From an uncultured Gammaproteobacteria bacterium (GTDB taxonomy: Bacteria > Pseudomonadota > Gammaproteobacteria > SZUA-229): a stretch of 64,000 nucleotides of DNA. Positions 27,844 through 36,224 of this stretch are shown piece after piece. Positions within the stretch are counted from its first letter, which is position 1, and every line of letters begins with the position of its first letter. The notes under the pieces are model-generated. The model worked only from the letters and a program-made list of their open reading frames with translations. It was not told the origin of the DNA and searched no databases. Position numbers and translations under genes: made by a program. The stretch lies in NCBI GenBank assembly GCA_963803185.1, contig CAWDMF010000013.1, forward strand, positions 12,067 through 76,066, read 5' to 3'.

Positions 27844-28448
27844 ACGTAGCTAATACAAAAAAAACATATGTGTTAAGCCCGCTTTTTTATCAGCTGGCAA
27901 GCAATGCTACGATAAACCATTGCTAATGCCTGATGCATTGCTTTTGCATAACGGGCAAACAAATAGCGCTGCTCACAAGGAAAGCTGATACCCCATTGGT
28001 GTCCAGGCTCATCAGCTTATACTTCATCGACGAGTAAAGTGGCACTCTCAGGCATATGCCTGGCGCCAACAGAAAGCACAACAGAAAGGGAAAGCTCAGT
28101 GCCACGTGATGTTCGGCGTGGCAGGTCTCGCAGCACAACCGCAGCAAGCCCTGTTCCAGGTAGCTGCATTTCAGTAGTCGCCGATCCATACCCGCTGGAC
28201 GTAACCGGGCAAATCCTGGATATGCCATAAAAAGGTCGCGGGCAGTGTACCGCTGGCATTTTAATCTTATGTTGCTGCCGTACCAGTACTCTTGCAAAGT
28301 GATGCTAACCTGCTCTACTTCAGGCTTCCGGGCTTTCGCCTTTCGGGCCAACCATTGGTTGTTCAAAATCGCTGCCGACGATTTTGTCGCGGCAATGACA
28401 GCTAAGCGGTAAAGCAGTGCGGGAATTCCTTTTTTATTCGCTGCCGGT

Positions 28449-28878
28449 TTACCTGTGGCAGTCCCGGCAGCTGTCATGCGGGCCCGTGGGGAGGCTCTGC
28501 TCATGCCGATGTTTATGGCAGCCGGTGCAAAGGCCATGGAATGCTTGCTGCGCGTTGCGCACCGGTGGTTCAGCGTCGTTCACCGAATCGGGCTCGGCTT
28601 TCCTGATATTGGCGATGCTGAAATACCTGGCCTGGTGGCAGGCTATAACAGCTGCGAACAGGCTCGTCCTTAGTGCGCAACGTATGGTGGCAGGTGACGC
28701 AGCGTACACCTTCGAGGTCACTGTGGCGCTGGTGGGCGAAGGTTACCGGACCGAACTTGGGCGTCAGGGTGATCTCGGCCTTTTCGGGCGGGATAGCGTC
28801 AGTCGCGGTCACCAGCGCCGGCGCAAGCCCAAAAAATAGAACGAACCAGCGCAACCGATTTGGGGCAGCTGGCCGCAT
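28449..28878 (-). pseudogene. c3-type tetraheme cytochrome c with Sec signal peptide, interrupted by an apparent 1-nt insertion near 28640 inside the second heme motif (CYSCH)
   Basis: Frame A (28878->28570): MRPAAPNRLRWFVLFFGLAPALVTA...VTFAHQRHSDLEGVRCVTCHH...RSCYS; frame B (->28449): ...AFHGLCTGCHKHRH...DSCRDCHR; deleting one C restores CYSCH giving four CxxCH. Confidence 0.5.
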
Positions 28879-28894
28879 CTGCACGCAGCTCGGG

Positions 28895-30277
28895 CTAGAA
28901 GTAATAACGAACACGGAATTCCAGCTTGTAGTTGTTGGGCTTTTCTCCCCACTCGGTGAGCTGATCGCCAATAGGCGCAATCAGTCGTAGCCGTAGGTCC
29001 AGGTTATCGACGCCTTCGTAGTTCAGCTCAGGCGAAACCGAGTAGCTGTTATCCAGCAAGTTGTAGAGCACCTGGAAACCCGGCGTGAAATAAAGGATGT
29101 TGTAGGGCTCTCTCCACCAGGCACGCAGGTGAAAATACTGGCGCATGGGATTGGGTTTGGTGAATGGACCCTTGTCGACGTCTTCGTCGAGGGGCAGTCC
29201 GGCCAGCAGGTCCGGATCGCCGGCGTCCCAGGCGCGGTGAACGCATTCGTAAAACTGCCGCTGATCCTGTTCCCGGTTTCCGGCGCCGTTGTAATAATAT
29301 TCAGCGATCCAGGTGACATCGTTCTCGGTTCGGTAGCGCAGCCCGAGTAGAGAGCTGATTTTGTCATCTGGCGCCTCCCGTGTGAATTTGCAATCCGGGG
29401 TTATGTTGTGCAGCGACACATCGGTGAGGTAAGCGAGTTCGCCGTGGACCGCAAAATTGGTGGTGATGTTACTGGCAAAATCCATGCCGTAGCGTGCTGT
29501 CTTGCTGCCTTCACTGAGGAACAGGAAATCGATGTCAGTGTTCTGGTACAGCAGGTAAAGCTTGGCCGCGTAGTTGGTGAAGCCTTCCTTGCCGAAGTCA
29601 TTATTGATGCTGCCGCGGTTCGGCAGTACCAGTGGCGTTAAGGCAACGGTCTTCAGCCGGCCGCCGAAGGTCTTTATATAATCGAAGCCGGCGATCCAGA
29701 AGCCCTCGCGCGCAAGATCGGGATTACCGGCGTCCTTGGCCCGTTCAACAAATGCGACGGGGTTCCACGCGTAGCCGGTGCCCCAGCGATAGGCCTTCTT
29801 GCCCATGTCAAAGCTGAAGCCGGGATCAGGCTGCAGGTTCAGCAGGCCCTCGTACAATATGGTTTCGCCGCTTTCGTCGGTGTAATCCCAGGTCTTGCTG
29901 GTATGAGTGCGGAAAGACAGGGTGGTGATGCCCCGCCGGTAGCGACCATCGAGTTCGAGTACGGCCGGCAGGCGGGAGATGCTGTCGCGCGGCTGTTCGT
30001 CGAAGAACTGCAGCTGGTACAGCGCACCATCCTGGTTGCTCTGTGCATAATTCGGCTCGATCTCGGCGTAACCGCGCAGCACGAATGGTTTGGCCTCAAA
30101 TTTTTCGACGTCGAAGGTGAACTCGTCGGCACCCAGACCCGGCATCGACGTCACCACACAGGCGGTGGCAATCAAGACTCCTGCATGCCGACGGAGGCTA
30201 GCTCGTGTCAATAGCCCAGTCGCCCGCCCCCCTCTTTCCATACCGCTAAGAACCATGGGTGCTGGCAGTTGAGTCAC
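28895..30277 (-). CDS. outer-membrane beta-barrel protein (GTG start overlapping upstream stop; mature start probably internal after signal peptide)
   Basis: 460 aa, signal-like LIATACVVTSMPGLGA, alternating amphipathic strands rich in Y/W/G, C-terminal ...EFRVRYYF aromatic terminus typical of OM barrels. Confidence 0.55.
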   Translation of the reverse strand: MTQLPAPMVLSGMERGGRATGLLTRASLRRHAGVLIATACVVTSMPGLGADEFTFDVEKFEAKPFVLRGYAEIEPNYAQSNQDGALYQLQFFDEQPRDSISRLPAVLELDGRYRRGITTLSFRTHTSKTWDYTDESGETILYEGLLNLQPDPGFSFDMGKKAYRWGTGYAWNPVAFVERAKDAGNPDLAREGFWIAGFDYIKTFGGRLKTVALTPLVLPNRGSINNDFGKEGFTNYAAKLYLLYQNTDIDFLFLSEGSKTARYGMDFASNITTNFAVHGELAYLTDVSLHNITPDCKFTREAPDDKISSLLGLRYRTENDVTWIAEYYYNGAGNREQDQRQFYECVHRAWDAGDPDLLAGLPLDEDVDKGPFTKPNPMRQYFHLRAWWREPYNILYFTPGFQVLYNLLDNSYSVSPELNYEGVDNLDLRLRLIAPIGDQLTEWGEKPNNYKLEFRVRYYF

Positions 30278-31014
30278 CGCAGCTCCTTCACCTTCGGCAT
30301 GTAGTTGAGCGTGAACACCTCGTCCGGAAAATCGCGGGCCTGGACTTTTGCAAACAGCATGACCGCCTTGTAGCCCTTGTACAGAGGGCTGTCGGTCTCG
30401 AGCATGGAAGGCCGCCGGATACCGTCGCCGAAGTCCTTGATTTCGCTGTAACGGAGCCGCTTGATCAACAAACCGCTGGCAGCGAAAGCCTCAATCGACA
30501 GCGGTAGCAGGGAACTTTTATCCACCACCATAGCCAGGCGATCATAGGCCACGGAGCCCGTCCTGGCCTTCAGTGACAGCTTGTAGTTGTCAGCCACTTC
30601 CTCGATGGTCTCGACGTTGTATTCAGTGCTGAACTCCAGTCGCATCAAGTCGGAATTATTGAAGATGCCGCCAACGACCGATTGCAGGCTGGTGATGCGG
30701 ATCGGTTTGCCCACATCGGGGATGAACAGCCACATGTTGTCGCCACGGCGAAGGGTGGTGCGACCGGCGTCGGTGGACGGCTCCAGGAACAACGCAACCA
30801 TGCTGTCACGACCTTTTTTGGCGGTATATAAGACGAATTCCTTGCGCTTACCGTCCGGTTCAACATTGATGAGTTTGCGATACATCTCGTACGACTCGGG
30901 GGCCAGGTTGCGATCCACCTGTTGCAGAATCGACTGCCCGTCAACAGCGTGGACACTGGCGGCGGCGCACAGCAGGATCACTACAGCCAGCAAGATTGGT
31001 CGCCTCATGTTCAC
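30274..31014 (-). CDS. periplasmic LolA-like (outer membrane lipoprotein-sorting protein family) carrier protein
   Basis: 246 aa with signal peptide MNMRRPILLAVVILLCAAASVHA; size/composition and operon context with MacB-type ABC typical of LolA-like proteins. Confidence 0.4.
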   Translation of the reverse strand: MNMRRPILLAVVILLCAAASVHAVDGQSILQQVDRNLAPESYEMYRKLINVEPDGKRKEFVLYTAKKGRDSMVALFLEPSTDAGRTTLRRGDNMWLFIPDVGKPIRITSLQSVVGGIFNNSDLMRLEFSTEYNVETIEEVADNYKLSLKARTGSVAYDRLAMVVDKSSLLPLSIEAFAASGLLIKRLRYSEIKDFGDGIRRPSMLETDSPLYKGYKAVMLFAKVQARDFPDEVFTLNYMPKVKELR

Positions 31015-31409
31015 TCGCCCCTCAATTCCTTGGCGACATCTTCGACAGTGCCACTGCGGCGGACAAAGCGTACTTTGCGTGCAACCATGACGTCCTCCAT
31101 CTTGGGCCCGACCATACCGCCGACGAGCACTGAGACACCCTTGTCGGCGAGTGTGGTGGCTGCCGCCGGTCCGATGCCGAACTCGAGATCAAGGTGGGGA
31201 TTGGCAAGGACCTCGATGGCTTTACCGTTGATATCGTAGAGGTGGAAATAGGGCGAAATGCCTGACAGCTTGCTGATCGACGACGTCAGTTCGGCACCCT
31301 CTGCCGCTATAGCGAAGTTATCGGCTTTGTAGGCGTCGGCTTCTTCGGCCGCAAAGGTCGACGTCAGCGTAAGGGTGACTAATGCGAAAAAGGAAAGTAC
31401 TCTGATCAT
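31011..31409 (-). CDS. secreted NifX/NafY-like dinitrogenase FeMo-cofactor-binding domain protein
   Basis: Signal peptide MIRVLSFFALVTLTLTSTFA; APYFHLYD...GKAIEVLAN and FGIGPAAATTLADKGVSVLVGGMVGPKM match PF02579 consensus (apyfliyd / ggaGi.aa.lL...gvdvv.tg.iGp). Confidence 0.55.
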   Translation of the reverse strand: MIRVLSFFALVTLTLTSTFAAEEADAYKADNFAIAAEGAELTSSISKLSGISPYFHLYDINGKAIEVLANPHLDLEFGIGPAAATTLADKGVSVLVGGMVGPKMEDVMVARKVRFVRRSGTVEDVAKELRGE

Positions 31410-31468
31410 AATGTTTCTCCTGGTGAAGACACAAACTCGCCGCTATCCAGCATGTTCGTATCCGGGGT

Positions 31469-32905
31469 TCATACGTGCCTTAATGCCTTGATCGGGTTCA
31501 TCCGCGAGGCCTTCCAGGCGGGCTGTAAACTTGCCAGGACCGCGACGAGTATGGTCAGCAGCCCGGTGATAATGACATCGGAGGCGGATATTGAGGGTAC
31601 CAGGATGAGATTATCCTGGCGCCCGAAGGCGATAGTGAAGGTCATCCGGTTGGCGATCCCAATGGCAGCAAGGCTGATCGCGGTCCCGATCACCGTCCCG
31701 ACGAAACCAAGAAGGAAACCCTCGCTGACGAACAGCGCCAGGATCGTAGCAGGTTTTGTGCCAATGGCGGAGATGGTGCCAATCTCCCGGATGCGTTCAT
31801 ATACTGCCATGATTAACACGTTCATGACGCTGATCAATACCACAGAAATCAGGATAATCCGGATGAACAGGGTCATCAGGTCTATCATGTCAGCAATCTT
31901 GGAAAACGGCACGAATTTCTGCCAGGGGTGTATCTGAAAAATGGTCAGCCCACGGCGGTTTTTCAATTCAGCGACTTTGGCCTCGAGACTGGCGAGCGTA
32001 ATTTCCTGCATGCCGCGATCACGCAATCGGATCGCGATCTCACTGACCTCGGAAGGTTGTCCCCAGCCTCTTTCGCTGAACAGCTTGCGCGTTGCGGGCA
32101 AAAACTCGTCGGTATCAGTGAGCGGAACCGGTGGTTGCTCGGCCAGTGCCGCGTCTCGCTTCAATTTGAGGCTGTCAACGGGGGCTTCGGCCGGCGCCTC
32201 GGCATAACCAAGACCCGCAAGTAATTCCTGTTCGACCGCCTGTTCCTCTATGCGCAGGAGTTCGCGCGCGTCGTCGATATGGAGGTAGCCGTCTCGACCG
32301 CCCGGACCGGAGATACTCTCAAGGATGCCCTGTACCACAAAGGTCTTGCCATTGACCGAACCGTCCTTGTTGGTTGCCACCAGCACAACGGTATCACCCA
32401 CCTTGACTTTCATGCCGTTGGCGATGAGCTCCGGGACCTGGATTTTGCCTTTTTCCACCAGGGGTGAGGACGTGCCGCCGGCGAACACCCGCTGGGTGAC
32501 CTGTGGCACGGTGGCGACCTCGCGATCGGGGTAGACGCCGTTGAGTCGGATGCTGGTGGTGCTGGCGAAATTGCTGAACATGGCCATCAACTTGATCCGC
32601 GGCGACCACGCCTCGATCTCGTCGGTTTCGTCAAGGCTCTGGTAAAGCTTGACCAGCATTCGTGGCCGCATGTTGCGATCGACGGGCAGGCTTTCCATGG
32701 CACCGACATAACCGCGACGGTGAACCTGGAGGTGTCCCACCATGGAGTCGGTGAATTGCGATACCATCATGGTCTTGAACGAGCCGGCAACCGCGATAAA
32801 TAGTAACACGGCTACCAGGCCCACGGTGATCAGAAGCGAGGTCAGAATAGTGCGTCGCTTGTAGCGCAGCAGGTTGCGACCCGCGATCTTGAGTACGTCA
32901 TTCAT
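31469..32905 (-). CDS. ABC transporter permease, FtsX/MacB/LolCE-type with about 300-aa periplasmic domain (ORF extends to 33028 but probable start MNDVLKIAGRNLLRYKRR at 32905)
   Basis: N-terminal TM, large periplasmic domain, C-terminal 3 TM helices ending ...SLQPAWKASRMNPIKALRHV typical of FtsX family. Confidence 0.75.
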   Translation of the reverse strand: MNDVLKIAGRNLLRYKRRTILTSLLITVGLVAVLLFIAVAGSFKTMMVSQFTDSMVGHLQVHRRGYVGAMESLPVDRNMRPRMLVKLYQSLDETDEIEAWSPRIKLMAMFSNFASTTSIRLNGVYPDREVATVPQVTQRVFAGGTSSPLVEKGKIQVPELIANGMKVKVGDTVVLVATNKDGSVNGKTFVVQGILESISGPGGRDGYLHIDDARELLRIEEQAVEQELLAGLGYAEAPAEAPVDSLKLKRDAALAEQPPVPLTDTDEFLPATRKLFSERGWGQPSEVSEIAIRLRDRGMQEITLASLEAKVAELKNRRGLTIFQIHPWQKFVPFSKIADMIDLMTLFIRIILISVVLISVMNVLIMAVYERIREIGTISAIGTKPATILALFVSEGFLLGFVGTVIGTAISLAAIGIANRMTFTIAFGRQDNLILVPSISASDVIITGLLTILVAVLASLQPAWKASRMNPIKALRHV

Positions 32906-33602
32906 GGCTTGCACCCTCATCTTTTGTCTGCCGTCGCACATGGCCGTCCTCGAGTACGAAGGTCTCCTCAGCCTCGGCCATGATCTTGGGATCGTGCGTC
33001 GAGAACACGAAGGTGGTACCAAATTCATCCCGGAGTTGTCGCATCAGCCCGATGATCCGGAGGGCCGTTGAGCGATCGAGATTCGCGGTTGGCTCGTCGG
33101 CAAGCACCAGCCTGGGATTCGTCACCAGGGCGCGGGCCACGGCGACCCGCTGCTTCTGGCCACCGGACAGCTGATCGGGACGTTTATCGGCCTGGTCAGA
33201 GATACCCGCTGCGGCCAGCAGGCTAAGGATCCGCTCGCGGCGACGCTGCAGGGGCCATTTCTGCACCATGATCAGCGGGTATTCCACATTCTCGTATACC
33301 GTAAGCACAGGAATAAGATTGAAGTCCTGAAAGACGAAGCCGATGTTCTCTCCACGGAATACCGCTGCTGCGTGATGGTCGAGTGTCGATACGTCCGTGC
33401 CGCTGACGGTGAGGCGGCCATCGGTCGGTGGATCGAGGCAGCCGATCATGTTGAGCAGCGTACTCTTGCCGCTTCCGGAGGGCCCGACGAAGCAAACGAA
33501 TGATGCCGGCTCGATGCTAAAGTCGACGCCGCGAATCGCGTGGACCGTCACATCGCCGGTGCGGTAATCCTTAACCAGATTTTCTGCGGTCACCAGGCTC
33601 AT
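32898..33602 (-). CDS. ABC transporter ATP-binding protein (MacB/LolD-type)
   Basis: Walker A GPSGSGKSTLLN, signature LSGGQKQRVAVARAL, Walker B LVLADEPT, H-loop; 234 aa. Confidence 0.85.
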   Translation of the reverse strand: MSLVTAENLVKDYRTGDVTVHAIRGVDFSIEPASFVCFVGPSGSGKSTLLNMIGCLDPPTDGRLTVSGTDVSTLDHHAAAVFRGENIGFVFQDFNLIPVLTVYENVEYPLIMVQKWPLQRRRERILSLLAAAGISDQADKRPDQLSGGQKQRVAVARALVTNPRLVLADEPTANLDRSTALRIIGLMRQLRDEFGTTFVFSTHDPKIMAEAEETFVLEDGHVRRQTKDEGASHE

Positions 33603-33706
33603 TGCCTGTCTCTCCTGTCTATCTGCGCGTCAGCCTTTTTCCTGCCCGTGGATCCCGCCTGCGGAGGTGCAAAGTCCAGTATCTCATCCAGGGCCCTCAT
33701 TACCGG

Positions 33707-34357
33707 CTATTTCTTCAGCTTTAACGGGTGTAACTGCTTGAGCAAGCCGGGTTCAGGTTCTTCGTCGTGGAGGTAACCTGGCGGCGGATAGATGGTCTCA
33801 CAAGTCCCCTCTTTGACCTCGGCCAATTCCCGCTGCGTCATGCAGACGTCGTAATTGCCAGGGCCACCATCCAGCTTGCCGTATCCGGGTCCATCCCACA
33901 ATACGTCAAAATCGCCCTCTCCGCCATAGAGCTGGTCGTCACCCGGCGCGCCAAACAGCCAGTCGTCACCGGGGCCGCCGTAAATGATATCAACACCGCG
34001 CGCGCCAAACAGGGAGTCAATGCCGGGGCCACCGCACAGGATGTCGTCCCCTGCGTCGCCGTGGACGACGTCGTTGCCAGGACCGGCGACGATGACATCA
34101 TTTTCGTCGCTACCCAGTATCAGGTCATGACCGGTAGTGCCCACACAAGTGGCTTTCTCGCCATGACAGAGCGGCACTTCGCTCAGGCCTGGCGGAAGAT
34201 AGGGGCACTTGATTACAGTATGAGCGGTCGTGTAGTCGGGGAAGGCTTCCTTGGTCACTTCGGGGCCCGCCGCCGTGGACATCGCGGCTAACGCGACGCT
34301 GATCGCAACAGCGATTTCGAAAAGACAAGAAACTCGGGATGATGATAAAACGCACAT
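33707..34357 (-). CDS. secreted RTX-like calcium-binding beta-roll protein (hemolysin-type GGxGxD repeats) with N-terminal Sec signal and Cys-containing flanks
   Basis: tandem nonapeptides GGPGIDSLF GARGVDIIY GGPGDDWLF GAPGDDQLY GGEGDFDVL; N-terminal hydrophobic signal, no C-terminal T1SS-type signal evident. Confidence 0.6.
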   Translation of the reverse strand: MCVLSSSRVSCLFEIAVAISVALAAMSTAAGPEVTKEAFPDYTTAHTVIKCPYLPPGLSEVPLCHGEKATCVGTTGHDLILGSDENDVIVAGPGNDVVHGDAGDDILCGGPGIDSLFGARGVDIIYGGPGDDWLFGAPGDDQLYGGEGDFDVLWDGPGYGKLDGGPGNYDVCMTQRELAEVKEGTCETIYPPPGYLHDEEPEPGLLKQLHPLKLKK

Positions 34358-34708
34358 TTTTTTATTCTCCTAATGTCATTTTTATTATTGTCCTTACAGT
34401 TGTTAAGTATACTCCCACTTTTCTAACGACATCAACCCTTCGGCTTCATTCTTTTGCAAAATTCAACCAATGCTCATCAGCTTTATTGCTGGTCAACAAT
34501 TTGTCGTACGAATACCCGATGTGCAGCTGACAGAATTCACCGATGCATTAACGCACGGCGAGATATTGCTGATGGCCGATGTATCACTTTTCGTGTTGCT
34601 GAAATTGAAAATCTTGTTCATAAGCAGCATCCAGAAGCGGCAGTTAGTGGTATAAGCTGGACAATGGATGGTTTCGGTATTTAACCTGGAGATTTTAAAA
34701 TAGCCGGG

Positions 34709-36058
34709 TTAAATAACCAAAAAATAGCCTGAACCAACAGCAGCGCATGCAGCAATTACGGAAACAATACCCGCTTTATATCTAAACAGGGCAATAAACG
34801 CTGCCGCACCGATGAAAGCTGAAAACCACTCAAAGTGGCCATCAAAACCTTGCGGCCAAAGCACATGGTAAGCAAAAAAAGTGGCAAGATTAAGAATGAC
34901 ACCAACCACCGCTGCGGTTATGCCGGTTAACGGGGCCGTAAACTTAACATCATCTCTGGTCGCTTCAACAGCGGGACCACCTAACAAAATAAAAAGAAAA
35001 GAAGGTAAAAAAGTAAACAAGGTGGCAATGCCTGCGCCTGCCGCGCCAGCTAAAAGTAACGAGTCAGGTCCAAAAATTTCTTTTGTCCAGGCGCCAACAA
35101 AACCCACAAAAGCCACAACCATAATCAGCGGTCCGGGTGTGGTTTCACCCAGGGCCAGGCCATCAATCATCTGGCTTCCGGTTAGCCATTGATATTGCTC
35201 AACACCACCTTGATAAACATAAGGTAAAACCGCATAAGCACCACCAAAAGTCACCAGTGCGGCTTTAGTAAAAAACCAGCTCATTTGTGTAAGCGTGCCC
35301 TGCCAGCCGTAAGCATTGATCAACATGATCATTACCGCGCCAGCAATGAACAGACCTATCAAAGAAAAAACCAGAAACCGGCCCCACTTAAACTGTGCAT
35401 GTTCAGGTGCGGGTGTGTCGTCATCAATAATGGCAGGCCCGTATGTCTCCTTCGAGGCACCATGGCCTGCACCCGCTTTAAAATGCTCAGGCGAAACATA
35501 GGACCCTATATAGCCGATTAAACCTGCCGCTAATACAATGTAAGGAAAAGATATCTCAAAAGCAAAAATAGCAATGAAGGCCAGTACAGCCATGAGACGC
35601 AGCACATTATTTTTTAACGCCCTGGAACCAATGCGGTAAGCAGCAAAGACCACTATCGCGGTAACAGCTGGTTTAATGCCGTATAAAACACCTTCAACCA
35701 CCGGCACATCACCATAAACCAGGTAAATCCATGTCAGACCAATAAGAATAAAAAGTGACGGCAGCACAAATAAAACACCCGCAGCAATACCACCCCAGAC
35801 ACCATGCATTAACCAGCCGATATAAGTTGCCAGCTGCTGCGCTTCTGGTCCAGGCAGTACCATGGTGTAATTAAGAGCATGCAAAAAACGATGTTCAGAA
35901 ATCCACCGGCGCTTTTCTACCAGCTCCTGATGCATCATGCTTATCTGGCCCGCTGGTCCACCAAAACTGATAAATCCTAACTTAAGCCAGTACATAACGG
36001 CTTCGAAAAATGAAACGGGCTCAGGTTGCCCTGTTAATTCCTTTGTATTTGAAGCCAT
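34709..36058 (-). CDS. chrA: chromate ion transporter ChrA (CHR family, two-domain); ORF extends to GTG at 36112
   Basis: FISFGGPAGQISMM...LPGP and second-half FGGAYAVLPYV motifs. Confidence 0.8.
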   Translation of the reverse strand: MASNTKELTGQPEPVSFFEAVMYWLKLGFISFGGPAGQISMMHQELVEKRRWISEHRFLHALNYTMVLPGPEAQQLATYIGWLMHGVWGGIAAGVLFVLPSLFILIGLTWIYLVYGDVPVVEGVLYGIKPAVTAIVVFAAYRIGSRALKNNVLRLMAVLAFIAIFAFEISFPYIVLAAGLIGYIGSYVSPEHFKAGAGHGASKETYGPAIIDDDTPAPEHAQFKWGRFLVFSLIGLFIAGAVMIMLINAYGWQGTLTQMSWFFTKAALVTFGGAYAVLPYVYQGGVEQYQWLTGSQMIDGLALGETTPGPLIMVVAFVGFVGAWTKEIFGPDSLLLAGAAGAGIATLFTFLPSFLFILLGGPAVEATRDDVKFTAPLTGITAAVVGVILNLATFFAYHVLWPQGFDGHFEWFSAFIGAAAFIALFRYKAGIVSVIAACAAVGSGYFLVI

Positions 36059-36224
36059 TAGATTCACTCTGAAAAACAAGCCGTTATTGTACACAACAGG
36101 CAGTTGAGACACTATTTAAGGAAGAAATATATGATTAATCCGGGCATTGAAGTAAATAGTGCAGCCTAACTGTATAACGACACTTTATGCTCAGCGGCGG
36201 AGTGAAAATTCTTTATCATTCCTT

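Follow-up and report, generated by a model that had tools for sequence, protein, structure and literature searches.

A PF02579 protein with a predicted Sec signal peptide as a probable accessory of an ABC/LolA-like envelope module in an uncultured gammaproteobacterium

Desulfovibrio ORP, which binds a Mo-Cu-S cluster and whose operon contains Mrp/MinD-type ATPases, is together with the functionally uncharacterised non-nif proteins MTH1175, TM1290, TM1816 and PH0822 among the solved members of the Pfam family PF02579. In the nitrogenase branch of this family, NifX binds the NifB cofactor (NifB-co) and NafY binds the iron-molybdenum cofactor (FeMo-co) (PMC11938142), with NifX His35 and NafY His121 being essential for binding (PMC11938142, PMC6428710). 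In a different context, a computational study from 2026 described the Borrelia BBJ23-29 cluster, comprising a MacB-like ATP-binding cassette (ABC) transporter, a LolA-like protein, an Omp85-type barrel and TPR chaperones, and proposed that it exports a non-polar ligand (PMC13078400). Here, we analysed a window of 64,000 nucleotides from an uncultured gammaproteobacterium (contig CAWDMF010000013.1, positions 12,067 to 76,066), in which a gene for a 132-residue PF02579 protein of the MTH1175-like type, predicted to be secreted, lies on the minus strand (31011..31409; assigned from the open reading frame (ORF) list, Pfam, homologues and AlphaFold2) within a cassette encoding an ABC transporter, a LolA-like carrier and an outer-membrane β-barrel. 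A sequence-only reading had labelled this protein, hereafter referred to as NifX-like, as a NifX/NafY-type FeMo-cofactor-binding domain with a cleavable signal, located in the periplasm and serving an export module.

Our preferred reading, to which we assign a probability of roughly 0.6, is that the NifX-like protein is a Sec-exported periplasmic accessory and partner of the LolA-like carrier in a type VII ABC trans-envelope module, in which it would probably provide a second ligand-binding or docking domain. Like the other functional statements made here, it is based on sequence, on predicted structure and on the genes nearby.

The first in-frame ATG serves as the start of the NifX-like ORF and is preceded, at a distance of 7 nt, by a strong Shine-Dalgarno sequence (AGGAG). 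This sequence and homologues that align from residue 1 rule out that the protein is a cytoplasmic NifX whose start was mis-called. The claimed membership in PF02579 was confirmed by a hidden Markov model (HMM) search, in which the Pfam Nitro_FeMo-Co domain matched residues 45–129 (31023..31277, minus strand) with an E-value of 1.3e-12 and 48.3 bits, compared with a gathering cut-off of 26.3. Of the two motif strings quoted in support of this match, GIGPAAATTLADKGVSVLVGGMVGPKM is exact and the other is wrong, as APYFHLYD should read SPYFHLYD. The close homologue set comprises 73 clusters of about 131 residues, and 26 aligned homologues share 31 invariant positions in the mature domain, which has a pI of 5.0, two histidines and no cysteine. 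An AlphaFold2 model computed with these 26 homologues showed predicted local distance difference test (pLDDT) values above 90 over residues 31–130, preceded by a low-confidence helix at residues 1–18 and a disordered linker. The model has the α/β fold of the NafY-core/MTH1175 type, and Foldseek matched it to TM1816, PH0822, ORP, TM1290, Ta1041, the NafY core (1p90; E-value 5e-5) and NifEN-bound NifX (9ian; 3.5e-4), the PDB entries matched including 1o13, 2yx6, 2wfb, 1rdu, 1p90 and 9ian. By family profile, the closest solved sequences were those of MTH1175 (1.4e-12), TM1290 (3.5e-10) and ORP (2.5e-4).

A Sec signal peptide is predicted at residues 1–20 (31350..31409, minus strand; MIRVLSFFALVTLTLTSTFA/AEE), with both cleavage and its site being inferred. 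Signal calls were made with a crude heuristic applied to N-termini, together with family evidence such as hydrophobicity, rather than with SignalP scores. The protein begins with MIR, followed by 16 uncharged residues (VLSFFALVTLTLTSTF) and by TFA before AEE, so that the heuristic finds the positive n-region, the h-region and the small residues at −3/−1 of a Sec signal peptide for signal peptidase I. Across the 26 homologues, the first 20–25 residues vary freely while staying hydrophobic, with small residues at the end, and a heuristic signal or lipobox is present in 71 of the 73 close homologues. The sequence-only reading had implied that signal-bearing PF02579 proteins are rare, which was overstated: among the best 150 cluster representatives, 87 of the 147 full-length PF02579 proteins bear a heuristic signal. 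Median length is about 131 residues in the signal-positive relatives and about 105–110 in the signal-negative ones, which begin exactly at the domain (MKIAIA…), and some relatives have lipoboxes. The N-terminus itself, the homologue pattern, the lengths, the lipoboxes and the fusions described below all support a cleavable-type Sec signal, although, less probably, the N-terminus may act as an uncleaved signal anchor.

The strongest evidence for a predicted extracytoplasmic location of the NifX-like domain was provided by natural gene fusions. These were found in a search anchored on the barrel gene, which yielded 80 metagenome loci that were scored with HMMs of each cassette protein; the junction from permease to LolA-like gene was visible in 52 of them, and presence was judged at the locus only. 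In four of the 52 loci, on four different metagenome contigs (L090:5922-6980, L109:5874-6950, L110:360-1436 and L116:2371-3429), a single N-terminal signal peptide precedes a PF02579 domain fused in frame to a mature LolA-like domain, the latter having no signal of its own. Both PF02579 and PF17131, the family of the LolA-like protein, were confirmed by Pfam in one of the four. Together with the Sec-type signal, these fusions to a LolA-like periplasmic domain support the periplasmic location that had been predicted for the NifX-like protein.

Export would proceed by the Sec rather than the twin-arginine translocation (Tat) route, because a twin-arginine-like motif (RRx##) is found in only eight of 232 signal-like relatives. 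Such a motif was looked for in the NifX-like protein of the window and was not found, so that Tat export of a pre-loaded holo-protein was ruled out. Sec export would therefore take the NifX-like protein across the inner membrane unfolded and without a ligand or cofactor loaded in the cytoplasm, and for this reason any ligand would be acquired only in the periplasm.

To place the protein relative to its nitrogenase relatives, the sequences of NifX (9ian) and the NafY core (1p90), obtained by PDB search, were aligned with the family. The histidine of the HFG motif, i.e. NifX His35 and NafY His121, aligns with Leu48 (31266-31268), a position that is leucine in nine of nine aligned close-clade members and L, V, K, M, F or R in the wider signal-bearing set. 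In contrast to NifX, NafY and NifY, which share the Pfam family and the ribonuclease-H-like fold and are cytoplasmic, NifX and NafY having the ligand histidine, the NifX-like protein has Leu48 and a Sec signal, is predicted to be periplasmic and has no nif context. No nif genes were present in the Pfam-annotated flanks or among the recurrent neighbour families of 109 loci. Accordingly, the part of the sequence-only reading that named a NifX/NafY-type FeMo-cofactor-binding domain did not hold: the histidine is replaced by an invariant Leu48, cysteines and nif neighbours are missing, and export is by Sec. The missing histidine, Sec export and lack of nif context rule out a true FeMo-co or NifB-co carrier, and a cytoplasmic or nif-related role is effectively excluded. 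By sequence and fold, the closest solved relatives are the MTH1175-type proteins and ORP, which likewise lack the NifX histidine and share the NP…GxG and GPK loops, but have no signal peptide. The binding pocket is probably retained in the NifX-like protein, because the glycine-rich loops that line the family pocket (N70-P71, GxGP and G101-P102-K103), which are common to the whole of PF02579, are conserved.

The cassette surrounding the gene lies entirely on the minus strand, within an island of high guanine-plus-cytosine (GC) content (28000..34400, strand not applicable; 55–60% versus 42–48% in the flanks, from the composition profile). Its first gene encodes a secreted RTX-repeat protein of 216 residues (33707..34357, minus strand), with a Ca-binding β-roll matched by Pfam HemolysinCabind in four stretches, an N-terminal Sec-type signal and six conserved cysteines. 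The N-terminal Sec-type signal is unusual for an RTX protein, since proteins of this kind normally carry a C-terminal signal and are secreted by type I systems. A LolD/MacB-like ABC ATPase of 234 residues follows (32898..33602, minus strand; Pfam PF00005, NCBIfam and homologues), the stop codon of which overlaps the start of a MacB-type permease of 477 residues (31469..32905, minus strand; Pfam MacB_PCD, PF12704, and FtsX, PF02687). The permease start was set at 32905 by homologue alignment, as the start in the ORF list (33028) is 42 codons too long. With MacB_PCD, a C-terminal FtsX domain and its cognate ATPase, this permease belongs by Pfam to the type VII ABC (MacB) superfamily. Of note, permeases of the window's clade measure 477–507 residues and carry a periplasmic-domain insertion of about 60–90 residues, compared with the permeases of 412–417 residues found in the broad family.

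Downstream of the NifX-like gene, a LolA-like periplasmic carrier of 244 residues is encoded (30274..31008, minus strand; PF17131, TP_0789-like; Pfam 132.6 bits), whose ATG at 31008, set by homologues, lies 2 nt past the NifX-like stop codon. It has a signal peptide of its own (…SVHA before VDG), and its best match among solved structures was NE2245 (3buu; 3e-28). The position of the NifX-like gene between an ABC permease and a LolA-like gene was thereby borne out, with MacB_PCD plus FtsX upstream and PF17131 downstream. Next comes an outer-membrane β-barrel protein of about 440–448 residues with no Pfam family (28895..30241, minus strand; AlphaFold2 and Foldseek), whose start is uncertain (Met at 30241) and whose C-terminus reads …RVRYYF. 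AlphaFold2 predicted a 16–18-strand barrel (pLDDT 79), which Foldseek matched to OmpF, chitoporin, OprD/Occ and AlgE at about 1e-11. The barrel protein had neither a Pfam match nor a PDB sequence match; its homologues number more than 1000, all annotated as hypothetical, and none was present in the plasmid collection. The NifX-like, LolA-like and barrel proteins all lack an NCBIfam family. Behind the barrel gene lies a tetrahaem cytochrome c3-like gene (28449..28914, minus strand; Pfam Cytochrom_CIII, with a frame switch in tblastn), which is split into two frames by a 1-nt insertion at 28643 within the second CxxCH motif. The gene is intact in the closest relative (L038, by DNA alignment) and in other loci. 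The frameshifted version in the window represents either a pseudogene or an assembly error.

Compared with the LolCDE–LolA–LolB system, the cassette likewise combines a type VII ABC motor with a periplasmic carrier of the LolA superfamily and has no membrane-fusion protein, but it has a single permease gene, a porin-like barrel instead of LolB and an extra NifX-fold subunit. A bona fide Lol system was ruled out by equivalog scores below cut-off (88.8 versus 362.45 for the permease against lolCE TIGR02212, a partial match, and 212.6 versus 307.75 for the ATPase against LolD TIGR02211), by the missing NCBIfam match of the LolA-like protein and by the lack of a LolB-type receptor. With MacAB–TolC, the cassette shares a permease of MacB architecture and a MacB-like ATPase, but it lacks a MacA/HlyD-type adaptor and a TolC-type channel. 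A pump of this type was ruled out in view of the missing adaptor and of a barrel that matches porins, OprD and AlgE, not TolC. Because Pfam detected neither a membrane-fusion protein nor TolC in the cassette, its design resembles Lol rather than MacAB–TolC. The Borrelia BBJ23-29 cluster has in common with it a MacB-like ABC transporter, a LolA-like protein, a dedicated barrel and extra periplasmic "chaperones", and differs in having an Omp85-type barrel and TPR accessories, whereas the window cassette has a porin-like barrel and a PF02579-fold accessory.

The cassette is flanked by folE2/queD-like genes on one side and a chromate-transporter gene on the other. Horizontal acquisition is likely, given the GC island and given that the cassette occurs elsewhere in unrelated genomic surroundings; in L001–L003, it adjoins an IS200-type Y1 transposase gene. 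The window itself showed neither flanking repeats nor a gene for a tRNA or an integrase, a repeat scan returned no convincing island-boundary repeats, and a scan for promoters and terminators gave nothing above chance.

Among GTDB species genomes, the close family was found only in uncultured gammaproteobacterial metagenome-assembled genomes (MAGs) of Chromatiales, Chromatiaceae and Thiotrichales. The order RTX, ATPase, permease, NifX-like, LolA-like and barrel is kept in 21 of 21 gammaproteobacterial genome loci as far as the contigs reach, and a cytochrome gene stands behind the barrel gene in a subset of them. L001–L007 show this gene order as well. The RTX gene comes first in the cassette only in this clade, wherever the upstream region was captured, and is absent from the broad-family modules. 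Searched with a profile, 1.8 billion cluster representatives yielded 990 matches, five of them at ≤1e-30, with many signal-bearing proteins of about 130 residues between 1e-20 and 1e-10. When the neighbours of signal-bearing PF02579 proteins were surveyed, as the sequence-only reading had suggested, five of six distant relatives (30–45% identity) were found within the same core module of ATPase, permease, NifX-like, LolA-like and barrel genes, one in a Thiohalophilus record, one each in MAGs of Burkholderiales and Thermodesulfobacteriota, and two on metagenome contigs. Membership of the NifX-like protein in an ABC/LolA-like envelope module is supported by synteny, which is conserved across more than 100 loci, and by the natural LolA-like fusions. 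Two side observations concern copy number and gene content: L015 and L028 are two cassette copies in one and the same MAG, and an extra LolA-like gene lies upstream of the cassette in L025 (4355-6562) and L026 (5724-6392), with L025 also having a second RTX gene there.

In contrast to those signal-bearing relatives, the two signal-less PF02579 relatives that were looked up lie in DUF134/metal-transporter contexts and not in ABC/LolA-like modules. There (L034:4329-6303 and L035:3380-6294), signal-less PF02579 proteins occur in pairs with DUF134 and metal transporters (ArsP-like, CDF). Both contigs look archaeal, and their conserved context differs from the ABC/LolA-like module yet is also metal-flavoured. 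Giant PF02579 proteins of 1000–1500 residues were also encountered (P0080, P0086, P0104 and P0193), with Pfam showing an N-terminal transmembrane helix, two PDZ domains and three or four tandem PF02579 domains in P0080, P0104 and P0193. They apparently represent another extracytoplasmic architecture of the PF02579 fold, without known function.

A separate NifX-like gene is present in 20 of the 52 barrel-anchored loci with a visible junction, between the permease and LolA-like genes in 19 of these and before the ATPase gene in one. This fixed gene position and the fusions tie the NifX-like protein to the LolA-like carrier. Several points weigh against the role we propose for it. In 28 of the 52 modules, there is no NifX-like gene at the locus, and the LolA-like gene follows the permease gene directly (−246 to +185 nt between the stop-to-stop ORFs); either the module can work without the NifX-like protein, or these genomes encode it at another site. 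One of the six distant signal-bearing relatives stands alone outside any module. The signal peptide is called by the heuristic rather than by a SignalP score, and the conserved residues of the protein offer no obvious metal ligands, as there is no cysteine and the only histidines are His56 and His72. The LolA-like family PF17131 has no tested function. Finally, while the analysis shows the fold, the signal-type N-terminus, the synteny, the fusions, the lost NifX/NafY ligand histidine and the barrel fold, it is the ligand, the cargo, the direction of transport and the contact between the parts, and with them the "carrier" role ascribed to the NifX-like protein, that we infer. Because 28 of 52 modules are without the gene, we consider the NifX-like protein an optional accessory. 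An obligate core subunit was ruled out on the same count, and the predicted core of the module is formed by ATPase, permease, LolA-like and barrel proteins.

Type VII ABC motors act on periplasmic or outer-leaflet substrates, and in the mechanism that we propose, the LolD-like ATPase and the MacB/LolCE-type permease would constitute such a motor. The LolA-like carrier would take cargo across the periplasm, and the dedicated porin-like outer-membrane barrel would serve as the exit. To this widespread, mobile envelope module working on the Lol principle, the NifX-like protein would add an optional fifth subunit, i.e. a soluble periplasmic PF02579-fold protein of the MTH1175-like rather than the NifX/NafY branch. 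It would work with the LolA-like carrier, probably as a second ligand-binding or docking domain, and could hold a polar, anionic or metal-bearing part of the cargo. Alternatively, its task could be to connect the carrier with the permease or barrel at the outward hand-off.

The alternative that survives best, which we regard as possible but clearly subordinate, is that the NifX-like protein is a periplasmic metallochaperone, with a role like that of CusF, for a metal-sulfur/thiometallate or other metal(loid) complex that it would feed into extrusion by the ABC, LolA-like and barrel proteins, the module then serving to detoxify metal(loid)s at the envelope. The characterised PF02579 ligands are all anionic metal-sulfur clusters, and ORP matches by both sequence and fold. 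As a functional analogy only, CusF in CusCFBA resembles the NifX-like protein, with its putative ligand binding, in being a small secreted binding protein encoded within an operon for envelope export. Both are missing from some such operons and can be fused to a partner, whereas fold and transporter class are unrelated, and metal binding by the NifX-like protein is putative. The mature domain has no conserved cysteine and few histidines, which argues against such a role, and a LolA-type hydrophobic cavity would be odd for an ionic species.

Gene neighbourhoods bear on this alternative in both directions. Flanking ORFs of the 109 loci were clustered, a procedure that makes families visible only if they recur across loci. 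Of the 42 broad-family loci whose flanks extend for 3 kb or more, 22 have one or more metal(loid)-type neighbours, versus none of 42 RTX-clade loci, this association being drawn from metagenome contigs of unknown taxonomy. The Pfam-confirmed neighbours of the broad group comprise ArsR regulators (eight loci), CDF transporters, low-molecular-weight ArsC-type phosphatases and ZraP-like Metal_resist proteins (five loci each), and ChrA and Thioredoxin_3 (four loci each). ChrA-like genes adjoin distant modules in L062 (2938-4122), L084 (5816-6829), L086 and L089, and in L084 the gene lies inside the operon, between the LolA-like and barrel genes. In the window, too, a ChrA-family chromate-transporter gene is located directly upstream of the cassette (34709..36112, minus strand; from the ORF list), and c-type cytochromes accompany the module. 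Against this, metal(loid)-type neighbours occur just as often around modules that lack the NifX-like gene as around those that have it, and the window's clade has no metal-gene neighbourhood except for this ChrA, which may be there by coincidence because it lies outside the GC island. The metal(loid) neighbours are therefore leads, not proof: they fit the anionic metal-sulfur ligands of the fold, but fit the window's own clade poorly.

Other neighbours that recur in the broad group are class II cytochrome c'-like proteins, small ferredoxins and MamS/X-like proteins. The first include a small secreted protein with a C-terminal CxxCH (L030, L053, L070, L084, L093 and L107), and the last a small secreted MamS/MamX-like protein with a GWxGSGGWGMG motif (L032, L069, L089, L098 and L101). 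No universally conserved extra partner was found in the 109 loci, and an additional conserved cargo gene was ruled out, since the largest flanking family covers ten of them.

Somewhat more doubtful is that the cassette is a Lol paralogue that moves a lipid, lipoprotein or other non-polar molecule to the outer membrane, with the NifX-fold protein as a ligand-free adaptor or docking domain. The LolD-like ATPase, the LolCE-like permease and a carrier within the LolA superfamily would all suit this function, the Borrelia BBJ cluster has been interpreted likewise, and a ligand-free role is consistent with both the lost cofactor-ligating histidine and the optional presence of the NifX-fold protein. 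However, the pocket loops (NP…GxG and GPK) are among the best conserved positions, which argues for a retained binding site. Furthermore, the scores against the NCBIfam Lol equivalogs fall far below their cut-offs, and the outer-membrane partner is a porin-like barrel, not LolB.

MacB-type pumps are known to export periplasmic proteins, such as enterotoxin STII by MacAB-TolC and dispersin by the Aat system, and the RTX gene, always first in the window's clade, encodes a product with an N-terminal signal and six conserved cysteines; yet it is very unlikely that the cassette secretes this RTX protein by Sec and then by the ABC motor and barrel, with the NifX-fold protein as its periplasmic chaperone, given that the core module and the NifX-like protein are widespread without an RTX gene, that a 16–18-strand porin-like barrel is narrow for a folded β-roll protein and that there is no evidence of interaction.

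A full-text literature search returned no description of secreted PF02579 proteins or of the module, apart from the Borrelia analogue. While the parts are all of known kinds, their combination, the extracytoplasmic PF02579 branch and the LolA-like fusion are new. PF02579 proteins are automatically annotated as "NifB/NifX family molybdenum-iron cluster-binding protein", which implies cytoplasmic nitrogenase assembly and is misleading here. The family would include a large extracytoplasmic branch, to which no fewer than 87 of the best 150 representatives (clustered at 50% identity) would belong and which has lost the cofactor-ligating histidine and is tied genetically, and sometimes physically, to the LolA-like carrier of an uncharacterised MacB-type module. 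A link of this module to metal(loid) stress is hinted at. In an unlikely but more far-reaching version, secreted PF02579 proteins would be periplasmic chaperones that hand metal-sulfur/thiometallate or metal(loid) complexes to a Lol-like extrusion pathway of ABC, LolA-like and barrel proteins. If true, extrusion of metal(loid)s through the envelope would occur by a type of system that has not been recognised before and that is widespread among bacteria of the sulfur cycle and of sediments; the window's clade would have added to it a secreted Ca-binding RTX protein and a tetrahaem cytochrome. The module represents a testable five-gene system, and the natural NifX–LolA fusion offers a handle on the interaction of its parts. 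Identification of the ligand would show what many non-nif PF02579 proteins bind, a question dating back to the first structural-genomics structures.

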